Source of the DNA: Candidatus Auribacterota bacterium
Lineage (GTDB): Bacteria; Auribacterota; Tritonobacteria; UBA1439
Assembly (NCBI GenBank): GCA_026392035.1
Contig: JAPLCX010000083.1
Coordinates: 4,597-68,596 of the forward strand
Direction of reading: 5' to 3'
Length of the DNA: 64,000 nucleotides
Shown: positions 9-62,430 of the stretch, in pieces
Layout of the letters: each line of letters opens with the position of its first letter
Position numbering within the stretch: the first letter of the stretch is position 1
Notes under the pieces: generated by a model
Told to the model about the DNA's origin: nothing
What the model saw: only the letters and a program-made list of their open reading frames with translations
Databases searched by the model: none
Program-made: the position numbers and the translations under genes

Positions 9-911
9 TCACTCGAAATGCGAGAGGGGCATGAACTCGCGGTAGCGCTCGCCTATCGCTTTCTCCGTGAGCGTCTTCATCCTGTCGAGGCTGAAATCCT
101 CGACGTTGAACGAGGCCATCACGCTCCCGTAGATCACCGCCTGGCGCATGGTATTCCATTCAGTGTTCCCCGCCCGCGACAGGTGCCCCATGAATCCGCC
201 GGCGAATGTATCGCCTGCCCCCGTGGGATCAATGATGTTTTCCATCGGGTACGCGGGCGCCGCGAAGATGTGGCCGTCGCCGAACAGCAGCGCGCCATGC
301 TCGCCCTTCTTGATGACCACCCACTCCGGACCCCACTCCCTGATCATCCTTCCCGCACGCACGAGGTTCGGCTGGCGCGTGAGCTGCCTCGCCTCCGCCT
401 CATTGAGCACGGCCACATCCACCATGCCCAGGAGCTTGAGGAGGGTATCCCGCTTCCCGTCGATCCAGAAATTCATGGTATCGCACGCCACGAGCCTAGG
501 CCGCTCGATCTGCCCGAGCACTTCCATCTGGAGATCGGGATCGATGTTGGCGAGAAAAACGCACTCGCTCTTCTTGTATTCCTCGGGGATCTCGGGCTTG
601 AAATTTTGGAACACGTTGAGGCATGTCGAGTGGGTTATCGCGGTGTTCATGTCATATCCGTAGGCTCCCACCCAGTGGAATGTCTCGCCGTCCAGCACCC
701 GTAACCCCCGCGTATCTATCCCGCGGGATTTGAGGAGCTCGATGTGCTCACGGGGGAAATCCTTGCCCACCACCGCGACCATATTGACCCGGTCAAAAAA
801 GCTCGCCGAGAAAGAGAAGAACGTCGCTGAACCGCCGAGCGTGCGCTCCCGCTTGCCGAACGGGGTTTCCACCGTATCGAGGGCCACGGAACCGACCACG
901 AGAATGCTCAC
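9..911 (-). CDS. PfkB-family carbohydrate kinase (ribokinase-like; possibly heptose-7-phosphate kinase HldA)
   Basis: 300-aa ORF with C-terminal DPTGAGDTFAGGF anion-hole motif typical of PfkB/ribokinase kinases; start overlaps thiC stop by 4 nt. Confidence 0.75.
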   Translation of the reverse strand: MSILVVGSVALDTVETPFGKRERTLGGSATFFSFSASFFDRVNMVAVVGKDFPREHIELLKSRGIDTRGLRVLDGETFHWVGAYGYDMNTAITHSTCLNVFQNFKPEIPEEYKKSECVFLANIDPDLQMEVLGQIERPRLVACDTMNFWIDGKRDTLLKLLGMVDVAVLNEAEARQLTRQPNLVRAGRMIREWGPEWVVIKKGEHGALLFGDGHIFAAPAYPMENIIDPTGAGDTFAGGFMGHLSRAGNTEWNTMRQAVIYGSVMASFNVEDFSLDRMKTLTEKAIGERYREFMPLSHFE

Positions 912-2287
912 TCAACCTCCTCAGTTTGGGATTTGGGACCCGCCTGAGGCGGGTAAATTTGGGACTTGCCCGCCGAATGGCGGGTTTGGGATTTTTTAAA
1001 ATATTCCTCGACCAGCTTTATCGAGCAGTAGTCACCGCACATGGTGCAGACATCCGAGCTGCGCGAAGGGCTCGCTGCACGTATCGATTCGGCCCTGCGC
1101 GTGTCCAGGGCGAGCGCAATCATCCCCTCCCAGTCCCTCTGCTTGCGTTTTTTTGCCATGGCCAGGTCCCAGCCGGCCGCCCCGCGGATGCCCTTGGCGA
1201 TGTCCGCCGCGTGCGCCGCGATTCTCGTCGTGATGACTCCCTCCCTCACATCCGCGGGCCCCGGCAGGCCAAGGTGCTCCGTGGAGGTTACGTAGCAGAG
1301 GTAATCCGCGCCGGCACTCGCCGCGATCGCTCCGCCGATGGCCGAGGTGATGTGATCATACCCGGGGGCCACATCGGTCACCAGCGGCCCGAGGACGTAG
1401 AACGGCGCGCCATGACAGACCTCTTTCTCGAGCTTGACATTTTCCTCGATCTTCCCGATCGGCACGTGCCCCGGTCCCTCAATCATCACCTGCACGCCCT
1501 CCCTCAGCGCGTACGTTTGGAGCTCCCCCAGCGTGATCAATTCCTGAAACTGCGCCCGGTCGTTGGCGTCCGCGAGGCAGCCGGGCCTCATCCCGTCGCC
1601 GAGGCTCAGCGTCATGTCATGCTGCGCGGCGAGCTCGACCAGGCGGCTGAAATCGCTGTAGAGCGGGTTCTCTTTCCCATTGGCGATCATCCATGTCACA
1701 AGAAACGCTCCCCCGCGGCTCACCACGTCCAGGATGCGCCCCTCTCGCTTGAGCCGCTCGAGGGCCGAAAGGGTCACGCCGCAGTGGACAGTGATGAAAT
1801 CCACTCCATCCACCCCATGCTCCTCGATGGCGGCGAACATCTCGTCAGCGGTCATGCTCCCGATGCCGCCCCCGGCCCTGGCGCGACGTACCGCCGCCTG
1901 ATATATGGGGACCGTCCCGAGCGGAACGGTGCACGCGGCGAGCAGTTTCCTCCGTATCCCGGGCAGGTCGCCCCCCGTGGAGAGATCCATCACCGTATCG
2001 GCGAGCGCGTCGAGGGCCGCGTCGAGCTTCTCGCGTTCACGCGCCTCGTCCGCAACATCCATCGAGGTGCCGATGTTCGCGTTGACCTTCGTCCTCAACC
2101 CCTTCCCGATTCCGCACTGTCGGGCGATCCGATGGCGTCGGTTGTGGGGTATTACCACCGTGCCCCCGGCGACGGATTCCATGAGGGCCTCTGGAGGCAC
2201 ACCCTCGATCTCGGCCACCGCCCGCACCTCCTCGGTCAGATTGCCGCGCTTCGCCTCGACAACCTGCAGGATTTTTTTGTTCTTCAT
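908..2287 (-). CDS. thiC: phosphomethylpyrimidine synthase ThiC
   Basis: 459-aa ORF, ThiC-like along its length, with CTMCGDYCS cysteine cluster near the C-terminus; the last ~27 codons are encoded by a TTTGGGA repeat element. Confidence 0.9.
   Translation of the reverse strand: MKNKKILQVVEAKRGNLTEEVRAVAEIEGVPPEALMESVAGGTVVIPHNRRHRIARQCGIGKGLRTKVNANIGTSMDVADEAREREKLDAALDALADTVMDLSTGGDLPGIRRKLLAACTVPLGTVPIYQAAVRRARAGGGIGSMTADEMFAAIEEHGVDGVDFITVHCGVTLSALERLKREGRILDVVSRGGAFLVTWMIANGKENPLYSDFSRLVELAAQHDMTLSLGDGMRPGCLADANDRAQFQELITLGELQTYALREGVQVMIEGPGHVPIGKIEENVKLEKEVCHGAPFYVLGPLVTDVAPGYDHITSAIGGAIAASAGADYLCYVTSTEHLGLPGPADVREGVITTRIAAHAADIAKGIRGAAGWDLAMAKKRKQRDWEGMIALALDTRRAESIRAASPSRSSDVCTMCGDYCSIKLVEEYFKKSQTRHSAGKSQIYPPQAGPKSQTEEVE
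925..997. repeat. TTTGGGA heptamer repeat element, copy A (two heptamers, GC hairpin, heptamer, GC hairpin, heptamer)
   Basis: tttgggatttggga-cccgcctgaggcggg-...-tttggga-cttgcccgccgaatggcggg-tttggga; provides the last codons and stop of thiC. Confidence 0.7.
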
Positions 2288-2400: not shown

Positions 2401-3039
2401 TTATTTCTCTCTAAATGCTCTTATTTCTTCCAGGAGGGCGCGGGCGACCGCAGCGGGATCAGGGGCGGATAGTATTGCCGAAGCCACCGCGATTCCCGTC
2501 GCGCCCGCACCCAGGACGTCGCTTACCCGTGGGCGCGTGATGCCCCCGACGGCGATCACCGGGAGCTTTACCCTCCGGGTTATCTCGGCGAGCCTCGCCA
2601 CTCCGACAACGCGCGCATCCGGCTTCGTGCGCGTTTGATATATCGCGCCGACACCAAGATAATCGGCCCCCTCGGCCTCAGCCCTCTCTGCCTCTTCCAC
2701 CAGCCGCGTGCTGCAACCGATGATCTTATCTTTCCCGAGGGTGCGCCGCGCCGCGACGACGGCCATATCGCCCTGGCCGAGGTGAACCCCATCGGCGCCG
2801 AGACGTGATGCGATATCCGCGCGATCATTCACAATGAGCCGAGCGCCAGCCTCTCGGCAGAGGGGGAGCATGCTGCTGACCGCGCGAGCGATTTCACCGT
2901 CTCCCGAGCACTTGTCCCTGTACTGGAACCACCTCACACCGGCATTGATGAGGGAATAGACTAGATCCTCTAGTCCCTTTTTAATGTATATTCCCCTATC
3001 GATAATCACACATAGATTAAAGGAAGGCACTACTATCAT
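2401..3039 (-). CDS. thiE: thiamine-phosphate synthase ThiE
   Basis: ORF extends to 3177, but ThiE-like sequence (LCVIIDRG..., VGAIYQTRTKP, IAVGGI) starts at Met-47 (ATG at 3039); the upstream codons span a hairpin-rich leader and do not look protein-like. Confidence 0.8.
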   Translation of the reverse strand: MIVVPSFNLCVIIDRGIYIKKGLEDLVYSLINAGVRWFQYRDKCSGDGEIARAVSSMLPLCREAGARLIVNDRADIASRLGADGVHLGQGDMAVVAARRTLGKDKIIGCSTRLVEEAERAEAEGADYLGVGAIYQTRTKPDARVVGVARLAEITRRVKLPVIAVGGITRPRVSDVLGAGATGIAVASAILSAPDPAAVARALLEEIRAFREK

Positions 3040-3082: not shown

Positions 3083-3153
3083 CTGTAGGGGCTTGATTTA
3101 TCAAGCCCGTCACCCATATATAATGCGGGTTCGATAAATCGAACCCCTACAAT
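3083..3153 (-). ncRNA. thiE leader with twin near-identical 9-bp hairpins and a competing outer stem (candidate cis-regulatory RNA; not a recognisable TPP riboswitch)
   Basis: Minus-strand RNA: GUAGGGG-[GGGUUCGAU uu AUCGAACCC]-gcauuauauaugggugac-[GGGCUUGAU aa AUCAAGCCC]-CUACAGG. Confidence 0.35.
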
Positions 3154-9649: not shown

Positions 9650-9719
9650 CACAGATTTCTCTGATTATTTATGCCTTTTCTGAGTAAATCAGTGGTGATT
9701 CATCTGTGGTAACATCCGT
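9650..9719. promoter_or_regulatory. ATC(A/T/C)GTG half-site cluster upstream of aroQ
   Basis: CACAGAT 9650; ATCAGTG 9688, ATCTGTG 9702, ATCCGTA 9714. Confidence 0.35.
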
Positions 9720-11849
9720 ATAATTAAGCCGCTGTATAGAAATTCTTTCCTTTCTCCATTTATGCTCGATCTCAGCCACCCGCTCCCTGACCATCGCGTC
9801 CAGCCTCTCGTACTCGGCGGGGCTGTGGCGGCGGATTCTCTTCGGTTTCTCACGCGCGACATGGATCAATCCCAACCCGCGGCGGTATTCACCCAGGGAC
9901 TCCGCCGGTCTCCCTGTCGTTTCGAGCCAGTAGGCCAGCAGGAGGTGATAGTCAACATCGTGCGGACTGCACGCGATGGCCTTCCGGAGCTCATCCATCG
10001 CTGCGGCGGCTTTTCCCTTGTCAGAGCCGCCGCCCGCATGGCGCCAGTAGCAGGCCGCGAGACGGAAATGGTAGGCGGGGATGCCCTCCCCGCGCACCGC
10101 AGCCTGCCGATATGCGGCCAGGGCGCCCCCGACATTCCCTGCCCTTTCCAGTATTTCCGCGAGGGAGTTCCAGTAGACCGGGTTATCACCCTCGAGTGAA
10201 AGCGCCTTGAGAACCTCTTCGCCGGCCCGGTCCCGCATCCCCCGTGTTTCCAGTTCTTGAGACCTCAGGCGGTGCCACTCAGCCCCGGCACGCGGCCCGA
10301 TCCAAAAAATCGCGGCCCCGAGGACGAGAAACCCCAGGAGCACACCGGACAACGCGGGCAGCCGGCGCGCGCGCGAGTGCGCCGTGGAAGCGCCGATTCC
10401 GAGCCCCGCGAGGGCCCAGAGCGTGAGACTCGTTTCCGGCACGCTCAGGTTCACGTCTATCGCGCCGTGCACCAGGAAGGCGCAGATGGAGATTGTCACT
10501 GCAAACGGGATAGCCTTTTCTGCCCGCGCCTGGTCGCATGAACAATTACTCTGGGATTTGGGATGCGCTTGTCCCGAGCGAAGCCGAGGGAAGATTTGGG
10601 ATTTAATAAGTGCCCGGATGCAGGAAACCCAGAGGCATATGAACGCGGCGAGGCCGATGGCGCCCATTTCTGAGGCGAGCCCCAGGTAGATATTATGGGG
10701 TAACCTCCCCTCCTCGGACCCCGGCGCCCTGAAACGCGCGTACGCGCCCGCAAAGCCTCCCGGCCCAAGTCCGCGCACCGGATTCTCCCGCCACATCCCC
10801 AGTGCGGCCCGCCAATAGTCAACGCGCGCCCCGGCGCTGTCTTTCATACCGGCTGGAACCATGTCCGCGAGCACCGCGACCACCACCAGGGCGAGCACCA
10901 CGAGTCCTATGGCAGACGCGATCTTGTACCTCCCCCGCAACAGGAGCGGGGTGAAAAGGACGGAAAATAGTAACGCGAGCCATGCCCCTTCGGACGCGGT
11001 GAGCGAGAGCGCCCAGAGGGGAAGGATCACCAGCGGGAGGGCGCACAGGTTCAGCAAGAGCCGGCTCCCTTTTCTCTCGGCGATGGCGAGCCCCGACAGG
11101 ACGGTGCTCGCGGCGGCAAAGAGGCACACCAGGAGGAGCGGCCTGGCGCTGAGATCGCTGAAGAATCCCCAGGCGACCGATGCGGCCAGGAGCGCGCCCA
11201 GGTACGTGCCGTAGCACGCGGCCAGTGAATCCGCCCGCGGCCAGAAAAATATCGAGGCGACGAACGGGATCGCGATGATGAGGTACCCCGCAAGTGCGTT
11301 CGGATAGAAAAAGGTTGAAAAAATGGCGTTCGAAGAAACTCTGCTCACGAATGCCGAACTTTGGTCGCCGGCCATCATTGCCCCGCTCAGGAGCGCGCGG
11401 GTCTCGCTCAAACCATAGAAGTATTGATGCAGACCGTACAGCGACACAAGGATAACGCCGGAAGCCACGCCGATAGAGAGGGCAATCCTTGCGGGGCGCG
11501 AGGAGCCGAGGTTCTCCGCGAGGAGGTACGCGGCGGTACAGGCGGCGGTCTGAAAAAAGAAATCCCTCGCGAGCCACTGCCGGCCCGAGCACATGGAGAG
11601 CAGGAGTACCACAAGGAAATAGAGCAGGACAAAGGCGCCGGTACGGGTCACACGCCATGGTATTCCGCCCCTGAGGGCAGAGCTATACAGGGAGAAGGCG
11701 AGGAGCATGGCGAGGATGAGGAGGATGGCCACGTTGCTCTCGGGGTAGGTCACTCCAGACCAGAGGACCCTCAGGACAAGGACTGCGCCAAGCGCGATGC
11801 CCAGTGCGATCGGCGCGGCTGATCCACTTTTTCCCGCTTCGCTGCTCAC
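9669..11849 (-). CDS. O-antigen ligase (Wzy_C)-like polytopic membrane protein fused to C-terminal TPR repeats
   Basis: About 12 TM helices and a Wzy_C-like loop, then TPR-like repeats (AAYRQAAVRGEGIPAYHFRLAACYW...); carries an in-frame TTTGGGA-repeat insertion (KSQIFPRLRSGQAHPKSQ). Confidence 0.7.
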   Translation of the reverse strand: MSSEAGKSGSAAPIALGIALGAVLVLRVLWSGVTYPESNVAILLILAMLLAFSLYSSALRGGIPWRVTRTGAFVLLYFLVVLLLSMCSGRQWLARDFFFQTAACTAAYLLAENLGSSRPARIALSIGVASGVILVSLYGLHQYFYGLSETRALLSGAMMAGDQSSAFVSRVSSNAIFSTFFYPNALAGYLIIAIPFVASIFFWPRADSLAACYGTYLGALLAASVAWGFFSDLSARPLLLVCLFAAASTVLSGLAIAERKGSRLLLNLCALPLVILPLWALSLTASEGAWLALLFSVLFTPLLLRGRYKIASAIGLVVLALVVVAVLADMVPAGMKDSAGARVDYWRAALGMWRENPVRGLGPGGFAGAYARFRAPGSEEGRLPHNIYLGLASEMGAIGLAAFICLWVSCIRALIKSQIFPRLRSGQAHPKSQSNCSCDQARAEKAIPFAVTISICAFLVHGAIDVNLSVPETSLTLWALAGLGIGASTAHSRARRLPALSGVLLGFLVLGAAIFWIGPRAGAEWHRLRSQELETRGMRDRAGEEVLKALSLEGDNPVYWNSLAEILERAGNVGGALAAYRQAAVRGEGIPAYHFRLAACYWRHAGGGSDKGKAAAAMDELRKAIACSPHDVDYHLLLAYWLETTGRPAESLGEYRRGLGLIHVAREKPKRIRRHSPAEYERLDAMVRERVAEIEHKWRKERISIQRLNYTDVTTDESPLIYSEKA
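10551..10604. repeat. TTTGGGA heptamer repeat element, copy B (inside the ligase-TPR CDS)
   Basis: ctgggatttggga-...gcttgtcccgagcgaagccgaggg...-atttgggattt; keeps the reading frame. Confidence 0.65.
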
Positions 11850-21001: not shown

Positions 21002-21101
21002 ATCCGCAATCTTGCTATTCAGCAAATGCTTTCTCCCGCGGATAAACGCCTCTTTGAAAGATACTCTGATAATCCGCGATTATCCGCGCCTATCCGCGGA
21101 T
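21002..21101. promoter_or_regulatory. ATCCGCG half-site array (three sites phased at 10 bp, the last palindromic ATCCGCGGAT, plus a mirrored CGCGGAT) in the radC–trm112 intergenic region
   Basis: ATCCGCG at 21072, 21082, 21092; CCGCGGAT at 21036; ATCCGCA at 21002. Confidence 0.45.
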
Positions 21102-21105
21102 TAAA

Positions 21106-22750: not shown

Positions 22751-22880
22751 TGTTCAACCCTGAAGGCAATCTCTTGATCCGAACCGGCGAACCGGTGTAT
22801 CGGCGAAAAGGAACGTTGATCATTGAACTGTGTATGCTATTGCGCCGTCTCGCCGATTCGCCCTGTCGCCGTTTCGCGGG

Positions 22881-25227: not shown

Positions 25228-25354
25228 TGCGTCTCTCCTTTCAGGTTACAGCTCACAAAATGGAAGAGAATCAGAGTTATTATATCACGATGCCGCGGAG
25301 ATTCAGCACTGCTTTTCCCCTCACCCGGTAAGGGGTCACTTATAGAGGGGGGCC

Positions 25355-25451
25355 ACGGATCCCGCTAAGCGGGACGGATTATGACGGATATTCACAGATG
25401 AAAAGAAAGCTTCATCTGCGGCCATCCGTGTGGTTATCCGTGAAAATCCGT
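25355..25451. promoter_or_regulatory. symmetric array of 10-bp-phased ACGGAT/ACAGAT half-sites mirrored by CATCTG/ATCCGT half-sites (putative regulator operator) upstream of rfbC
   Basis: ACGGAT at 25355, 25374, 25384; ACAGATGAA at 25394; then TTCATCTG at 25412 and ATCCGT at 25424, 25436, 25446. Confidence 0.5.
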
Positions 25452-25463
25452 GGCGAACATCAT

Positions 25464-34440: not shown

Positions 34441-34531
34441 CTGCGGCTATTGTGGACCAATGAAGAAATTTTACTCAGTATCTTCTGCGACTATTTCCAA
34501 GACAATCCGTGTCTATCTGTGTTCATCTGTG
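34428..34531. promoter_or_regulatory. ATC(C/T)GTG half-site array (three sites phased at 10 bp) upstream of and over the start of the first GT-C gene
   Basis: ATCCGTG 34505, ATCTGTG 34515, ATCTGTG 34525; ATCTGCG at 34428 and 34439. Confidence 0.45.
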
Positions 34532-34542
34532 GCTAATACTAA

Positions 34543-41553: not shown

Positions 41554-43260
41554 TTAATGTCTTGCCTTGCACCATAGGATAAGAATAGCAAATCCTCCCA
41601 ACATTGACACTACCACCCCCGTATAATAAAGTGGTGGTCTATAATACAAGGATACTTCCGCGTCAGAAGGGGCGATAGGCACCGAAAGGAGCCCATTCTT
41701 TGAAATTGCCTGCTTCCCTCCTTCCGTGCGCCAGCCTGGATCGTAACGCTGATTTATCATAAGCAAATCCCGCGCGGTACATCGAACTCTGTAGCACAGC
41801 CTGTTCGGGCTCCACATAACAGTTTCTACAGAACCGCTCCCATGAGCAAGCCAGACCTCGCCCCGGTAGCCTGGTTCATCGAAGGCATTCACGCCCACCA
41901 GCGGCAGATCGAATCCGTCGTAATTATTAATCAAGCCTTCGTTCTGAAGAAAACAGAGGAACGAGCGAGGTCCCTGCTGCTCTTCTTTAGGAAGTCGCAC
42001 CTGGTGGAAGGGACCTGACCTTTTTGGCTCAAGCGGAGCACTGGTGGAGACGCTGGTGTAGATTGGGGCTGACACCACCATGAGGTCCGTCACCACAGCC
42101 ACAGTAGCTATCCCTAATGCCATGGTGAGCGCCCATGGCCATTCTCCGTGAAGCACGCGCACCAATTCCTCCAATCGCGAAACGGTCATCGCGCTCATCA
42201 GCGCGAGACAGAATATCAATATCACCCGGAACCTAACCGGATCATGAAGGGATGTGAACATGGGGAGCAGATGTATCCAGTGCCATGGTGACATCATTCC
42301 GTAATCACCAAACATGAGGCAGAAGAATAGCAGTGCCATAATCCCCATGGGGAGCGCTCTTTTACGCGCAAGAAAAGGCGCGCTCACGGCGAGGAGCATC
42401 GGGAGCACCCCGACGTAGGCTCCATATTCCCACCATCCGAGCCAGGCACCCGTAAAGTTGGTCTCACTTATCTGGTCGCGCCCGAGAAACATGCGTGGTA
42501 GCGCCAACCAAGAAAGCACCGGCTCTCTCCAAAACGTCGGCCGAGGATTCCTTGAGAGAAATTCCGTCATCGGGACTAGCTTCACTCCGCTCAGTGCCAG
42601 GCCGAGTATCACCGTGATGAGAAAGACTCCAATCGGTAAAAGACGCTTTCTCATAACAGCCTCGATCAGCGCGTATAGCGAAAGGAAGAGAAGCGCGTAC
42701 GGCACCGGATATATCCCGCCTTCGAAAATCATGAGCGCAAGCACCAGACCTCCTCCCGCGCACCAGCGCATATTCTCCAGCGCCTTTTCATAAAAAAGGA
42801 TCAGCCATGGAAGATATGCAAAGGGAATAAATTCGTCATGCCAGTGCGACATATAGAGCGGGTACCAGCTGCTGAACATGTACACGAAGGCACATAGAAA
42901 AGGTGCGAATCGCCCTGGCGTAAAACGCCTTCCGAGCAGATATCCCCCGCAGAGCCCTACCCAGAGAACCAAGAGAATGCGCAGCTTCGACCCTACCACC
43001 GGTCCAAAGGCCACGGTGAGTATAAAGGCGGGAGAAAAAAATGAGGAAATGGGATACGCGAAAAATGGCACTCCTCCCGATGCCCATGGATTCCAGAAGG
43101 GGAACTGGTGATACCTCAAGAGAGTGAGCCGCGGCACGCCGGCAAGGAGAAAGGCCCGGTGCCACACGTCTATACCCCACCCCCCCAGCTGGAAGGCGAC
43201 GGGAAGCCACATCACAACTGAGAGTGCCAGAAGCAGCTTTACCGCTGCCGACGTTTTCAT
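41554..43260 (-). CDS. YfhO-like polytopic membrane protein (GT-C)
   Basis: QFPFWNPWASGGVP motif typical of the YfhO family; ORF reaches 43368, start likely Met-37. Confidence 0.55.
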   Translation of the reverse strand: MKTSAAVKLLLALSVVMWLPVAFQLGGWGIDVWHRAFLLAGVPRLTLLRYHQFPFWNPWASGGVPFFAYPISSFFSPAFILTVAFGPVVGSKLRILLVLWVGLCGGYLLGRRFTPGRFAPFLCAFVYMFSSWYPLYMSHWHDEFIPFAYLPWLILFYEKALENMRWCAGGGLVLALMIFEGGIYPVPYALLFLSLYALIEAVMRKRLLPIGVFLITVILGLALSGVKLVPMTEFLSRNPRPTFWREPVLSWLALPRMFLGRDQISETNFTGAWLGWWEYGAYVGVLPMLLAVSAPFLARKRALPMGIMALLFFCLMFGDYGMMSPWHWIHLLPMFTSLHDPVRFRVILIFCLALMSAMTVSRLEELVRVLHGEWPWALTMALGIATVAVVTDLMVVSAPIYTSVSTSAPLEPKRSGPFHQVRLPKEEQQGPRSFLCFLQNEGLINNYDGFDLPLVGVNAFDEPGYRGEVWLAHGSGSVETVMWSPNRLCYRVRCTARDLLMINQRYDPGWRTEGGKQAISKNGLLSVPIAPSDAEVSLYYRPPLYYTGVVVSMLGGFAILILWCKARH

Positions 43261-57193: not shown

Positions 57194-57210
57194 CTTGATG
57201 CTGATGCTGT

Positions 57211-57368
57211 TTCACCACGGAGACACGGAGAACACGGAGAACAAGAGATTATTACAAAGGGCAAAAGAACCGAATGAATAACATACCTGGAAGCTCCACC
57301 ACAGAGGGTATGAGACTGCTTTCATAAGCCATATCCTTACTCCGTGCTCTCCGTGCCTCCGTGGTAAA
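57211..57368. repeat. inverted pair of CACGGAG-repeat arms flanking about 100 bp (MITE-like or long stem)
   Basis: Left ttcaccacggagacacggagaacacggaga at 57211-57241; right tccgtgctctccgtgcctccgtggtaaa at 57341-57368 is its near reverse complement. Confidence 0.6.
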
Positions 57369-57389
57369 AATCCCTACGATATTTTCGTC

Positions 57390-58886: not shown

Positions 58887-58918
58887 TGCCTCACCCGAAA
58901 CCGCTCCTCAGTTCTCTA

Positions 58919-58983
58919 ACCACTGAAAACACTGAATATTCTGAATCGTTGTTTCTCCAGTGATTTCTGTGTCTTCAGTGGTT
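58919..58983. repeat. 10-bp inverted repeat (aaccactgaa / ttcagtggtt) enclosing a ctgaat-rich 45-nt loop
   Basis: Lies in the lysS–TIGR04073 intergenic region, directly next to CACGGAG element copy 3. Confidence 0.5.
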
Positions 58984-58999
58984 AAAACATTACACGATC

Positions 59000-59050
59000 T
59001 TCTCCGTGCCCTCCGTGCCCCTGCCTGCCGGCAGGCAGGTCCGTGGTGAA
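59000..59050. repeat. CACGGAG-repeat / CCTGCCTGCCGGCAGGCAGG palindrome element, copy 3 (inverted relative to copy 1)
   Basis: tctccgtgccctccgtgcc-cctgcctgccggcaggcagg-tccgtggtgaa. Confidence 0.65.
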
Positions 59051-59595: not shown

Positions 59596-59636
59596 GCCCA
59601 TTGCCTTTTTTCTTTTCACTATTCACCATCCACTTT

Positions 59637-60735
59637 TCACTCTCCACTGTGTCTGAGGTACGCCTCGATAAACGGCTGGATCTCTCCATCCATGACCGCC
59701 TGCACATTGCCTGTTTCATGCCTGGTCCGGTGGTCCTTGACCATCTGGTAGGGCTGGAAGACGTAGGAGCGGATCTGGCTTCCCCAGGCAATTTCCTGTT
59801 TCTCCCCCCGCTCCTTTGCAAGTTCCTCCTCTTTGATCCGCCGGAAGTGCTCCGCCACGCGCGCGGTGAGCACGCGCATCGCGGTCACGCGGTTCTTGTA
59901 CTGCGAGCGCTCGTTCTGGCACTGCACGACGATCCCGGTCGGGAAGTGCGTGATGCGGACGGCGGAGTCCGTCTTGTTCACGTGCTGGCCGCCCGCCCCG
60001 TGGGCGCGGAAGGTGTCGATCCTCAGATCCTCGTCCTTGATCTCGATCTCCTGCTCTCCCTCCACCTCCGGCACCACGTCCGCCGATGCGAACGAGGTGT
60101 GCCGCCGCTTATTCGAGTCGAACGGGGAAATCCGCACGAGCCGGTGAACGCCGCGCTCCGCCTTAAGGTAGCCATAGGCGTAGGCTCCCCTGACGGACAG
60201 CGTGACGCTGCGGAATCCGGCCTCCTCGCCCGGGGTCATGTCGAGGACCTCCACCGCGCACCCGCGCTGCTCCGCCCACCGCCGGTACATCCGAAGCAAC
60301 ATCGCGACCCAGTCGCAGGACTCGGTGCCGCCGGCCCCCGCGTGGATCATCATGATCGCCCCCGCCTGGTCGTGCGGGTCAGCCAGCATCGACTTGAGCT
60401 CGAGCTCGCGGTACTCGCCTTCGACGCGCTCGAGGTCCTTCGCCAGTTCTGGGGCGGAGCTCTCGTCCCCCTCAGCCCTGATGAGTTCGAGGAATACGCC
60501 GATGTCCTCCGCTTCCTTGCTGATCTTCTCCCAGCACCCGACTGTCTCCTTGATCCTGCTGAGCGTTTCGGTGACGGTCCGTGCGCCGGCCTGGTCGCTC
60601 CAGAAACCCGACCTGCCTATCTTCTCCTCGAGGCCGGAAATCTCCTTCCGCTTGCCGGGGACGTCAAAGGTAGTCTCCGAGCTTCTGCAGGCCATCAATG
60701 AGCCGCATTTGCCGGTCGATCAGTTCGTCAAGCAT
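59637..60735 (-). CDS. prfB: peptide chain release factor 2, requiring programmed +1 frameshift
   Basis: Frame-0 MLDELIDRQMRLIDGLQKLGDYL* ends at CTT TGA C (60669-60663); the +1 frame continues DVPGKRKEISGLEE... with RF2 GGQ and SPF motifs. Confidence 0.9.
60660..60675 (-). promoter_or_regulatory. prfB: prfB autoregulatory +1 frameshift site (CTT TGA C preceded by internal SD-like GGAG)
   Basis: Minus strand reads ...CTCGGAGACTACCTTTGACGTC...; canonical RF2 recoding heptamer. Confidence 0.85.
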
Positions 60736-60749
60736 ATAACCCTCCGGAT

Positions 60750-60802
60750 AAATCCCAAATCCCAAACCTTAAATCCCAAATCCAAAATCCCAAATCCCAA
60801 TA
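60750..60802. repeat. TTTGGGA heptamer repeat element, copy C (seven tandem heptamers in the prfB 5' leader)
   Basis: Minus strand reads ATTGGGA TTTGGGA TTTTGGA TTTGGGA TTTAAGG TTTGGGA TTTGGGA, ending 15 nt before the prfB ATG. Confidence 0.75.
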
Positions 60803-62324: not shown

Positions 62325-62430
62325 GTTCAAACGGTTTAAACCCCTGCACTCAGGTTCAAACCGTTCAAATTGTTGAAATTGTTAAAGTCGTTCACCGTAT
62401 CGAATCAAACGGCTCCAACGACTTAAACGA
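62325..62430. repeat. degenerate 9-bp tandem repeat TT(C/A)AA(A/C)N(C/T)G, about 8 copies, in the secA–lnt intergenic region
   Basis: ttcaaacgg tttaaaccc ... ttcaaaccg ttcaaattg ttgaaattg ttaaagtcg ttcaccg ... tcaaacggc ... ttaaacgat. Confidence 0.5.

Follow-up and report, generated by a model that had tools for sequence, protein, structure and literature searches.

Units of seven nucleotides are the commonest class of long simple sequence repeat (SSR) in many bacterial genomes and are attributed to polymerase slippage, as two later studies summarise the earlier work (Mrazek 2007, in PMC4692102 and PMC4679880). The G-rich heptamers of Rehm et al. (2015; PMC4692102), GGGAATC in Xanthomonas and GGGGA(C/T)T in Nostoc and Anabaena (the cyanobacterial short tandemly repeated repetitive, or STRR, type), are found mostly between co-directional open reading frames (ORFs), no more than 50 bp from an ORF end, and may extend over a stop codon; their length varies between close relatives, inverted pairs are possible, and the repeats form quadruplexes in vitro and have no established function. 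MacGregor (2015; PMC4679880) described TAACTGA repeats of marine Beggiatoaceae, Cyanobacteria and Bacteroidetes, found in two to six copies just upstream of start codons between co-directional genes; these arrays overlap some upstream stops and in their stop-free orientation form the unconserved termini of MurG and a glycosyl hydrolase, and the author proposes that such insertions survive mainly at protein termini. Here we analyse a heptanucleotide array, TTTGGGA on the plus strand and TCCCAAA in the sense of the mRNA, at the junction of thiC and a downstream sugar kinase gene in a 64,000-nucleotide stretch of contig JAPLCX010000083.1 (assembly GCA_026392035.1), the whole of which we call the window. 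With a probability of roughly three in four, we propose that the 3' end of thiC has absorbed a (TCCCAAA)n microsatellite, that the C-terminal tail of the encoded protein is its read-through product, and that the GC-rich hairpins within the array were inserted later.

The array at the thiC-kinase junction

The thiC coding sequence (908-2287, minus strand), supported by the ORF list, Pfam, NCBIfam and an AlphaFold model, encodes 459 residues, of which residues 1 to about 432 (992-2287, minus) form the conserved core as delimited by the extent of the family matches and by the predicted local distance difference test (pLDDT). Homology ends at FKK: Pfam PF01964 (ThiC_Rad_SAM) matches residues 8-427 (E = 1.3e-184), the NCBIfam ThiC equivalog PRK13352 matches residues 8-436, pairwise alignments with the crystallised Caulobacter and Arabidopsis enzymes end at residue 429-435, and the consensus of a 36-orthologue alignment ends in EYFKK. 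The AlphaFold model built on that alignment has high pLDDT to residue 432 and a final helix at 422-435; residues 433-459 score below 50 and have no secondary structure. The C-terminal end reads CSIKLVEEYFKK-SQTRHSAGKSQIYPPQAGPKSQTEEVE*, with the core closing in EEYFKK and the 27-codon tail SQTRHSAGKSQIYPPQAGPKSQTEEVE (911-991, minus) without homology among the 36 orthologues. The first-pass annotation of this DNA had assigned the last 27 codons of thiC to the TTTGGGA repeat, and sequence, ORF and translation agree on this; it had also explained the recurrence of KSQ by the heptamer being read on the opposite strand, and KSQ or PKSQ is indeed the heptamer read in frame. The last five tail codons (TEEVE) are the kinase ribosome-binding site (RBS) read in the thiC frame. 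These heptamer- and RBS-encoded segments are the only recurring pieces of the peptide. Judged from sequence and structure prediction, the tail is unconserved and probably disordered, apparently an unselected by-product whose peptide is whatever the repeat DNA spells.

Read on the plus strand, positions 925-991 (locus A) consist of TTTGGGA TTTGGGA CCCGCCTGAGGCGGG TAAA TTTGGGA CTTG CCCGCCGAATGGCGGG TTTGGGA. Two abutting heptamers (925-938, starting at 925 and 932; TCCCAAA TCCCAAA in mRNA sense) are followed by a segment that, compared with hairpin-free alleles, is a 19-nt insert (939-957), composed of the GC hairpin CCCGCCTGAGGCGGG (939-953; CCCGCC-TGA-GGCGGG) and a TAAA linker. After a third heptamer (958-964) comes a 20-nt insert (965-984) with the same layout in reversed orientation, a CTTG linker and then the GC hairpin CCCGCCGAATGGCGGG (969-984; CCCGCC-GAAT-GGCGGG), and the fourth heptamer (985-991) directly adjoins the last conserved Lys codon, at the site of the orthologues' stop codon. 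The element had been drawn as 925-997; its repeat portion is 925-991, and bases 992-997 (TTTTTT) are two Lys codons of the conserved FKK end and lie outside it. As RNA, the hairpins at 939-953 and 969-984 have folding energies of -10.3 kcal/mol (z = -3.7) and -11.6 kcal/mol (z = -3.3), respectively.

Immediately 3' of thiC in the same operon lies a 300-residue PfkB-family sugar or nucleoside kinase (9-911, minus; Pfam PF00294), for which no NCBIfam equivalog scored above its cut-off; the gene order thiE-thiC-pfkB is kept in all relatives compared. The thiC stop TGA (908-910) and the kinase start GTG (909-911) overlap in GTGA (908-911, minus). The kinase Shine-Dalgarno sequence GAGGAGG (916-922, minus), conserved in all heptamer-bearing alleles as ACTGAGGAGGTTGAGTG, lies 4 nt upstream of the GTG and inside the thiC frame. 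All orthologues have ATG or GTG followed by AGCAT at this position, and the start assignment is secure. The repeat had been credited with placing the kinase start in a 4-nt overlap; the overlap is real, follows from the lack of stops in the repeat and is not one of the repeat's own properties. No stop occurs in any of the six frames of TCCCAAA/TTTGGGA, and capture into an ORF is therefore possible in either orientation. Sense frames 0 and +1 are open through the repeat up to the kinase RBS, and frame +2 has a single earlier stop, a TAA within the FKK codons; by computation, frame 0 ends at GTGA, frame +2 ends at CTGA, and frame +1 continues for 65 codons into the kinase gene.

The mechanism that we favour begins with a heptamer array arising exactly where orthologues place the thiC stop, with loss of that stop. 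Ribosomes translating thiC would then run on to the first stop past the repeat, the TGA overlapping the kinase GTG, because no sense frame of the heptamer or of the GC hairpins includes a stop. The array differs by whole heptamers between near-identical strains, as expected from replication slippage, and GC-rich inserts of differing sequence have entered it in different strains, those of the window being two 19-20-nt modules of a CCCGCC hairpin and a 4-nt linker in opposite orientation. The tail would be tolerated, as other ThiC proteins extend past the Fe-S cluster motif: the solved Caulobacter and Arabidopsis chains run about 35-55 residues beyond the aligned region, so that extra residues after the Cys-x2-Cys-x4-Cys motif are evidently tolerated in the family. 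The kinase would bear the main functional effect: with thiC ribosomes terminating on or within the kinase RBS, re-initiation there would tie kinase synthesis to thiC translation. In the window allele these ribosomes would, in addition, open a predicted duplex in which GCCUCAG of the proximal hairpin pairs with CUGAGGAGG of the Shine-Dalgarno region. As for the repeat, it most likely arose by mutation with little or no effect on fitness and did not evolve as a device.

An allelic series in relatives

The decisive support for this reading comes from junction DNA in relatives whose ThiC is at least 90% identical. The cluster contains proteins of 433, 437, 444, 446, 459 and 469 residues that differ essentially only past FKK. 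Two alleles (L163 and L164) read AAA (TCCCAAA)3 TTCCAAA CTGAGGAGGTTGA GTG, that is, four heptamers and no hairpin, with a 14-residue tail SQIPNPKFQTEEVE and the stop in GTGA (the allele DNA 3' of TTCCAAA is also written CTGAGGAGGTTGAGTG). A third (L165) has (TCCCAAA)4 and five heptamers in all, which shifts the frame to give the tail SQIPNPKSQIPN* and a CTGA stop 9 nt before the GTG. These alleles differ by one heptamer and are otherwise identical in ThiC and flanks; such a step of one whole unit between close strains is the kind of change expected from slippage. L161 has (TCCCAAA)4, a 52-nt GC-rich insert and then a further TCCCAAA, with a 37-residue tail and a GTGA stop. The window allele, with four heptamers and its 20-nt and 19-nt hairpin inserts, has a 27-residue tail and likewise stops in GTGA; the inserts sum to 39 nt, or 13 codons, which is exactly the difference between the 14- and 27-residue tails, and because of this the frame and the GTGA stop are retained. 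L166 lacks heptamers, carries another short-repeat family (GTCCATGG) in an 84-nt spacer and ends FKKDVHGR*, and P0128, represented by its protein sequence alone, ends FKKK*.

More distant relatives extend the series. L002 (76% ThiC identity) also has the GTGA overlap, and its junction consists of TCCCAAA TCCC, a GC hairpin of 34 nt and degenerate heptamers. In L008 (a Candidatus Auribacterota metagenome-assembled genome, 78% ThiC identity), (TCCCAAA)4 directly after FKK is followed by an insert of about 190 nt, and the ORF ends at residue 487; beyond the insert lie an inverted (TTTGGGA)2, a GC hairpin and then the kinase start. Both arrays start right after the FKK codons, and their inserts differ. 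Other orthologues simply stop: L007 ends FKK* and L029 FKKNR*, with unrelated hairpins in their spacers; P0006, like P0128, stops at this point (FKK*), and others have short unrelated tails. All tails of the KSQ… and …TEEVE type coincide with TCCCAAA heptamers and the conserved kinase RBS in the DNA, and no orthologue shares the tail without having the repeat.

On account of this series we regard the array as a copy-number-variable simple sequence repeat, in which the heptamers are the primary, variable component and the hairpins secondary, allele-specific insertions. This bears on what the first-pass annotation had put forward. Its central proposal, that an intergenic repeat was captured into the 3' end of thiC, a gene presumed to be essential, stands, since homology stops at FKK and orthologues stop there. 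Its picture of a single fixed element does not, since thiC 3' ends in related strains (L161, L163-L166 and others) differ in both heptamer number and inserts. Likewise, the two GC hairpins do sit just before the kinase RBS, as it had noted, and are specific to the window allele, both being missing from L163, L164 and L165, rather than parts of one unit.

The same comparison bears on whether the tail could instead be a functional, selected extension of ThiC or, alternatively, a frameshift artefact of sequencing or assembly, an account that we consider very improbable. Its occurrence in several strains, and the ending …TEEVE* in most alleles, would suit a selected extension; tail sequences, however, are fully different between strains except where heptamer and RBS dictate them, and the tail is predicted to be disordered. 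A conserved protein tail is ruled out by the sequences of orthologues and of the members of the 90%-identity cluster. An artefact might be suspected from the A6 run just before the repeat, since homopolymers invite errors; yet independent assemblies from 8 samples and from a second strain agree. Four Logan contigs, assembled independently and including one found in 8 samples, encode the identical 459-residue ThiC, and a second variant (P0001), with two substitutions elsewhere, bears the same tail. Furthermore, an error in the A6 run would not restore a stop just past FKK, because frames 0 and +1 are open there and the TAA of frame +2 lies within the FKK codons. The independent contigs with identical protein rule out an assembly artefact.

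Recurrence of the heptamer and other short repeats

The heptamer recurs at three loci in the 64-kb window, one of them within a coding loop. The 14-mer double heptamer TTTGGGATTTGGGA, with up to 2 mismatches, has 6 matches against 0.79 expected, a number reached in 0 of 100 shuffles, and single TTTGGGA heptamers number 15 against 8.1 expected, with 10 of the 15 in the three clusters; the pattern exceeds what chance would give. Locus B (10550-10601, plus strand) comprises TCTGGGA, TTTGGGA, a 31-nt spacer and TTTGGGA, read in frame (…IKSQIFPRLRSGQAHPKSQS…) within a loop after the Wzy_C domain of a 726-residue Wzy_C/TPR membrane protein (9669-11849, minus). Its spacer is barely structured (-5.6 kcal/mol, z = -0.45). 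A 147-nt segment around it is equally long in the L161 and L163 orthologues (83% identity), where the heptamers decay by point substitution (for example TCCCAAA to TCCCGAA or CCCCGGA), and a 49%-identical orthologue (L009) has a loop about 23 residues shorter. As the segment is common to the 83%-identity orthologues and missing only at 49% identity, locus B is old and decaying by point mutation, and a recent insertion is ruled out. Locus C (60753-60801, minus), between lnt and prfB, reads ATTGGGA TTTGGGA TTTTGGA TTTGGGA TTTAAGG TTTGGGA TTTGGGA; Tandem Repeats Finder reports period 7, 7.3 copies and a score of 74, and the array, which ends 17 nt before the prfB ATG, contains no hairpin. Head-to-tail iteration of the 7-nt unit is thus seen as a tandem at locus C, as two adjacent and two spaced copies at locus A, and as three to four perfect copies in the orthologous alleles. 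Loci A, B and C share the heptamer only, with the C-rich strand in sense at A and B and the G-rich strand at C; the earlier claim that the same element occurs at two other loci in the window holds for the heptamer and fails for the hairpins, the spacer of B being different and C having none.

Beside these loci we record two observations. The spacer of locus B, CCCTCGGCTTCGCTCGGGACAAGC (10564-10594, read PRLRSGQA), contains a motif, GGCTTCG…CTC(G/A)GGACAAGC, that is common to the thiC-junction inserts of L161 (11325-11376) and L008 (about 11390-11420), and this motif may represent a widespread GC-rich repeat family travelling with heptamer arrays. At locus C, six independently assembled unitigs (L207-L212, Logan contigs with the window lnt gene) end at the same base inside the array (…TTTGGGATTTTGGATTTGGGAT) and start inside an upstream GTTCAAATT array; the assembly graph evidently branches at the repeats flanking lnt, through polymorphism or multi-locus k-mers, and the locus C array is a place where Logan unitigs break.

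Beyond this genome, a search for TTTGGGATTTGGGA-N(0-30)-TTTGGGA in metagenome contigs and IMG/VR returned at least 120 unrelated metagenome contigs and 11 IMG/VR contigs, with GC contents of 19% to 69% among the matches listed. Many of the matches listed are inverted pairs of the form (CCCAAAT)n-loop-(ATTTGGG)n directly after a stop codon, and many adjoin sister heptamers such as TTTCGGA, TTTGCGA, TTTGGAA or GCGGATT. Most arrays lie at gene boundaries by crude stop-to-stop ORF calls, and by the same crude calls the C-rich strand is tentatively the sense strand in 21 of the 26 arrays upstream of ORFs. Two composition-matched control heptamers occur at 27 and 13 viral loci, against 11 for TTTGGGA; because the controls are as common, TTTGGGA is ruled out as a special heptamer, and heptamer arrays are common in general. 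Of 148 TTTGGGA arrays in metagenome and viral contigs, 12% have a GC hairpin beside them, as do 22% of control windows; hairpins are thus not enriched at the arrays, and a conserved composite of heptamer and GC hairpin across environments is ruled out. A literature search for the exact repeat strings gave only eukaryotic primer matches.

There is another account of locus A, in which the heptamer-hairpin-heptamer block is one mobile non-autonomous element, of the repetitive extragenic palindromic (REP)/bacterial interspersed mosaic element (BIME) type or the miniature inverted-repeat transposable element (MITE) type, transposed into the thiC-kinase spacer, with the heptamers as its ends or as target-site duplications. 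We think this unlikely. The two inserts do share one layout (CCCGCC-loop-GGCGGG with a YAAR linker) and face opposite ways, much as REPs alternate within a BIME; and other short-repeat arrays of the window enclose GC hairpins (2288-2400, 25228-25463). A near-identical hairpin (CCGCC-GAA-GGCGG with a CTTG linker) lies inside TTTGGGA arrays of an unrelated IMG/VR contig (L154, L160), on which three or four genes are each followed by a copy of a foldback unit of some 220 nt whose arms are heptamers. In L008, inverted arrays, (TCCCAAA)4 … (TTTGGGA)2, flank the insert. The closest strains, however, have hairpin-free arrays at the same site that differ by exactly one heptamer, and the heptamer count of four is the same whether or not the two inserts are there, which leaves no sign of a target duplication. 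Nor does locus A show the inverted arm that a MITE would have. CCCGCC-N3-6-GGCGGG has 2 matches in the window against 0.08 expected, both at locus A, and other spacers (locus B, L161, L002, L008) differ, so that the recurring palindrome of a REP or BIME is absent from the window; the inserts of L161, L002 and L008 at the same site are unrelated in sequence, and the 12% against 22% of the hairpin survey points the same way. The foldback unit of L154 and L160, with its near-identical hairpin, leaves a mobile-element component some small probability. As L008 and L154 suggest with their inverted heptamer arms, relatives of the TTTGGGA repeat can form foldback units.

The foldback unit itself occurs on IMG/VR contig 3300009784_000469 after successive co-directional genes (L154 1250-1475, 3280-3500 and 4625-4815; L160 850-1145). 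It runs from the stop codon through (TCCCAAA)4-5, with or without a CCGCC-TTC-GGCGG hairpin, and a CA-rich core with a conserved CGCGCGAAGCGCG hairpin, to (TTTGGGA)4-5, and suggests a MITE-like or cassette-boundary element whose arms are heptamer arrays.

A known structured RNA at the junction (riboswitch, attenuator or small RNA) was considered and is ruled out. An Rfam covariance-model scan of the whole window found no family at gathering score, the thiamine pyrophosphate riboswitch included, despite the thiE-thiC thiamine operon; the junction fold is not unusually stable (z = -1.5), and structure is not conserved between alleles. No intrinsic terminator lies at the hairpins on the sense strand, where they precede CAAG or UCCCAAA; the sole terminator-like match there (plus strand, 962-987, followed by GGGATTTTTT) runs antisense to both genes, thiC and the kinase.

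It is also possible, though we judge it improbable, that the array is a regulatory device: either a contingency (phase-variable) repeat that sets the end of thiC and switches the kinase, or a G-quadruplex or protein-binding site controlling the junction. The one-heptamer difference between L163 and L165 does shift the stop from GTGA to CTGA; the frame with the 65-codon run-on was not observed. Array positions fit the published bias of G-rich heptamers, locus A lying within 50 bp upstream of an ORF in antisense and locus C within 50 bp after a stop in sense, and the C-rich sense orientation of 21 of 26 arrays upstream of ORFs agrees. ViennaRNA with its G-quadruplex option predicts that four perfect copies would prefer a quadruplex (-8.4 against -3.6 kcal/mol), and predicts one only for at least four perfect copies, as in L161, L165 and L008. 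It predicts none, however, at loci A or C of the window; at locus A the loops between the heptamer G-tracts measure 4 nt and then 13-18 nt, the longer ones holding the hairpins. Orientation differs between loci A and B and locus C, the close strains L166 and P0128 have no array, and the viral control heptamers are equally common. Moreover, neither thiC nor a sugar kinase gene is the kind of gene usually under contingency control, and for their own repeats Rehm et al. (PMC4692102) found no regulatory role.

In a more elaborate form, which we find doubtful, the array would be a functional module: a slippage switch in which copy number modulo 3 and the hairpins choose between GTGA, CTGA and run-on and so gate the kinase, or a preferred landing pad for a family of 19-20-nt mini-hairpins (YTTR plus a CCCGCC stem) inserting in either orientation. 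If true, the switch would tune or gate kinase synthesis according to whether the stop falls on the kinase start, in its Shine-Dalgarno sequence or after a run-on, and the landing pad would amount to a mosaic system, resembling BIMEs, that has yet to be described for the Auribacterota and PVC-related candidate phyla.

Several points weigh against the absorbed-microsatellite reading or parts of it. Translation and stability of the tail are predictions from the reading frame, and the coupling to the kinase is read from the geometry of the junction. The occurrence of one heptamer at three loci in 64 kb exceeds what slippage alone would yield, and some spreading or sequence-specific bias must exist. 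The pairing that would hide the Shine-Dalgarno sequence is the minimum-energy structure of a 49-nt segment (-17.7 kcal/mol, 63% of the ensemble, z = -1.7) and is absent from hairpin-free alleles; this absence, together with fold statistics that are unremarkable for the pairing as for the junction as a whole, indicates that it is probably incidental. Finally, five distinct alleles end in GTGA, one in CTGA and none in the run-on frame, which suggests purifying selection on the placement of the thiC stop, although the count is not significant ((2/3)^6 = 0.09).

Other short tandem-repeat families occupy the intergenic regions of the window (CACGGAG in inverted triplets, GCGGATAA, GTTCAAATT and TTCACTA), nearly every longer spacer having its own, and the genome is evidently prone to such arrays. 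The CACGGAG/CACGGAT/CACAGA family (57194-57389, 2288-2400, 25228-25463, 34441-34542 and 58887-59005) has a forward triplet, a spacer of about 100 nt and an inverted triplet; in one example, CCACGGAGgCACGGAGagCACGGAG … CTCCGTGttCTCCGTGtCTCCGTGG, the 25-nt terminal inverted repeats are built of sub-repeats, and in two cases a GC hairpin lies between units. Further intergenic tandem repeats lie at 21068-21103, 22751-22880, 59615-59648 and 62354-62394 (GATTATCCGC/GCGGATAA, CGGCGA-type, TTCACTA and GTTCAAATT).

Three further features concern gene calls. Between a cytidylyltransferase-like gene and thiE, positions 3085-3150 (minus) hold a REP-like compound palindrome, GTAGGGG-ttcgatttatcgaa-CCCGC … CGGG-cttgataaatcaag-CCCCTAC, which the mechanical thiE ORF reads through as …GVRFIEPALYMGDGLDKSSPYRR…; because the Pfam TMP-TENI match begins at residue 55 of that ORF, thiE itself probably begins at the ATG at 3039. 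At 60663-60735 (minus), prfB has the classical programmed +1 frameshift, running from the ATG at 60735 to …GAC TAC CTT TGA C (CTT TGA C at 60669-60663), with a Shine-Dalgarno-like GGAG 6 nt upstream and the body of release factor 2 extending in the +1 frame as far as 59637; only the 353-residue downstream part, with an artificial TTG start, appears in the mechanical ORF list. A stretch of about 900 nt (41554-42457) has no ORF of at least 80 residues in the crude gene map yet looks coding, and may be a frameshifted or degraded gene.

Comparison with described repeats

The REP and BIME sequences of enterobacteria are small GC palindromes between operon genes, alternating in orientation with short conserved linkers and contained in polycistronic mRNA; they affect the stability of upstream mRNA and, near a stop codon, the termination of translation. 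At locus A, in contrast, it is the heptamer linker that is conserved and not the palindrome, and the palindromes, of 15-16 nt, vary between loci and occur at a single locus in the window. Rickettsia palindromic elements are selfish palindromic units of 100-150 bp and defined sequence, lying in frame within protein genes and tolerated in surface loops or termini. The likeness here is stop-free repeat DNA within ORFs, with locus B as an in-frame loop segment missing in a distant orthologue; the heptamer repeat differs in being a microsatellite and has no sequence similarity to these elements. The tandem repeats of Borgs, as reported in PMC9879509, create intrinsically disordered protein regions, and the genic units described there are divisible by three and reported to be under selection. 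Rapidly evolving tandem repeats that yield new disordered protein segments are common to both cases as far as that report describes them, whereas the unit here is 7 nt, so that each change in copy number shifts the frame, and nothing indicates selection on the peptide.

The resemblance to other heptamer repeats is closer. Like the TAACTGA repeats, the array at locus A is a short run of heptamers near a start codon that overlaps a stop and forms an unconserved protein end in a stop-free orientation; unlike them, TCCCAAA/TTTGGGA is free of stops in all six frames, where TAACTGA has stops in all forward frames, and the kinase at locus A has a canonical Shine-Dalgarno sequence. With the STRR and GGGNATC repeats it shares a 7-nt unit with a G3 tract, (TGGGATT)n being one base from the Nostoc GGGGATT, as well as tandem copies, often about four, a position between co-directional genes and within 50 bp of an ORF end, stop overlap, variation in length and sequence at one locus between close relatives, and inverted pairs. 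It differs from them in its unit, GGGATTT instead of GGGNATC or GGGGA(C/T)T, in its host, an uncultured lineage whose nearest named relatives are Candidatus Auribacterota, and in the window array being interrupted by GC hairpins, with no canonical quadruplex predicted.

Locus A thus behaves as a heptameric long SSR, of the LSSR/STRR type, with a new unit, GGGATTT, in a new lineage, and its kind is already known. Overlap with a stop codon and capture into a C-terminus have both been reported for known heptamer repeats, of the sort described in PMC4692102 as well as that in PMC4679880, and the spread of one heptamer to many loci of a genome raises the same question here as for the STRR and GGGNATC repeats. 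The thiC tail opens no new mechanism and is a tidy example rather than a new system. For annotation, it implies that C-terminal tails of the 'KSQIPNPK' type and array-extended ORFs are to be taken as repeat read-through and not as conserved domains. To the known kind it adds a natural series in which a stop-free microsatellite erases a stop codon, adds a disordered tail to a conserved enzyme and turns a 55-95-nt spacer into a stop/start overlap, and which is unusually complete, the intermediate alleles of the junction being preserved in sister strains.

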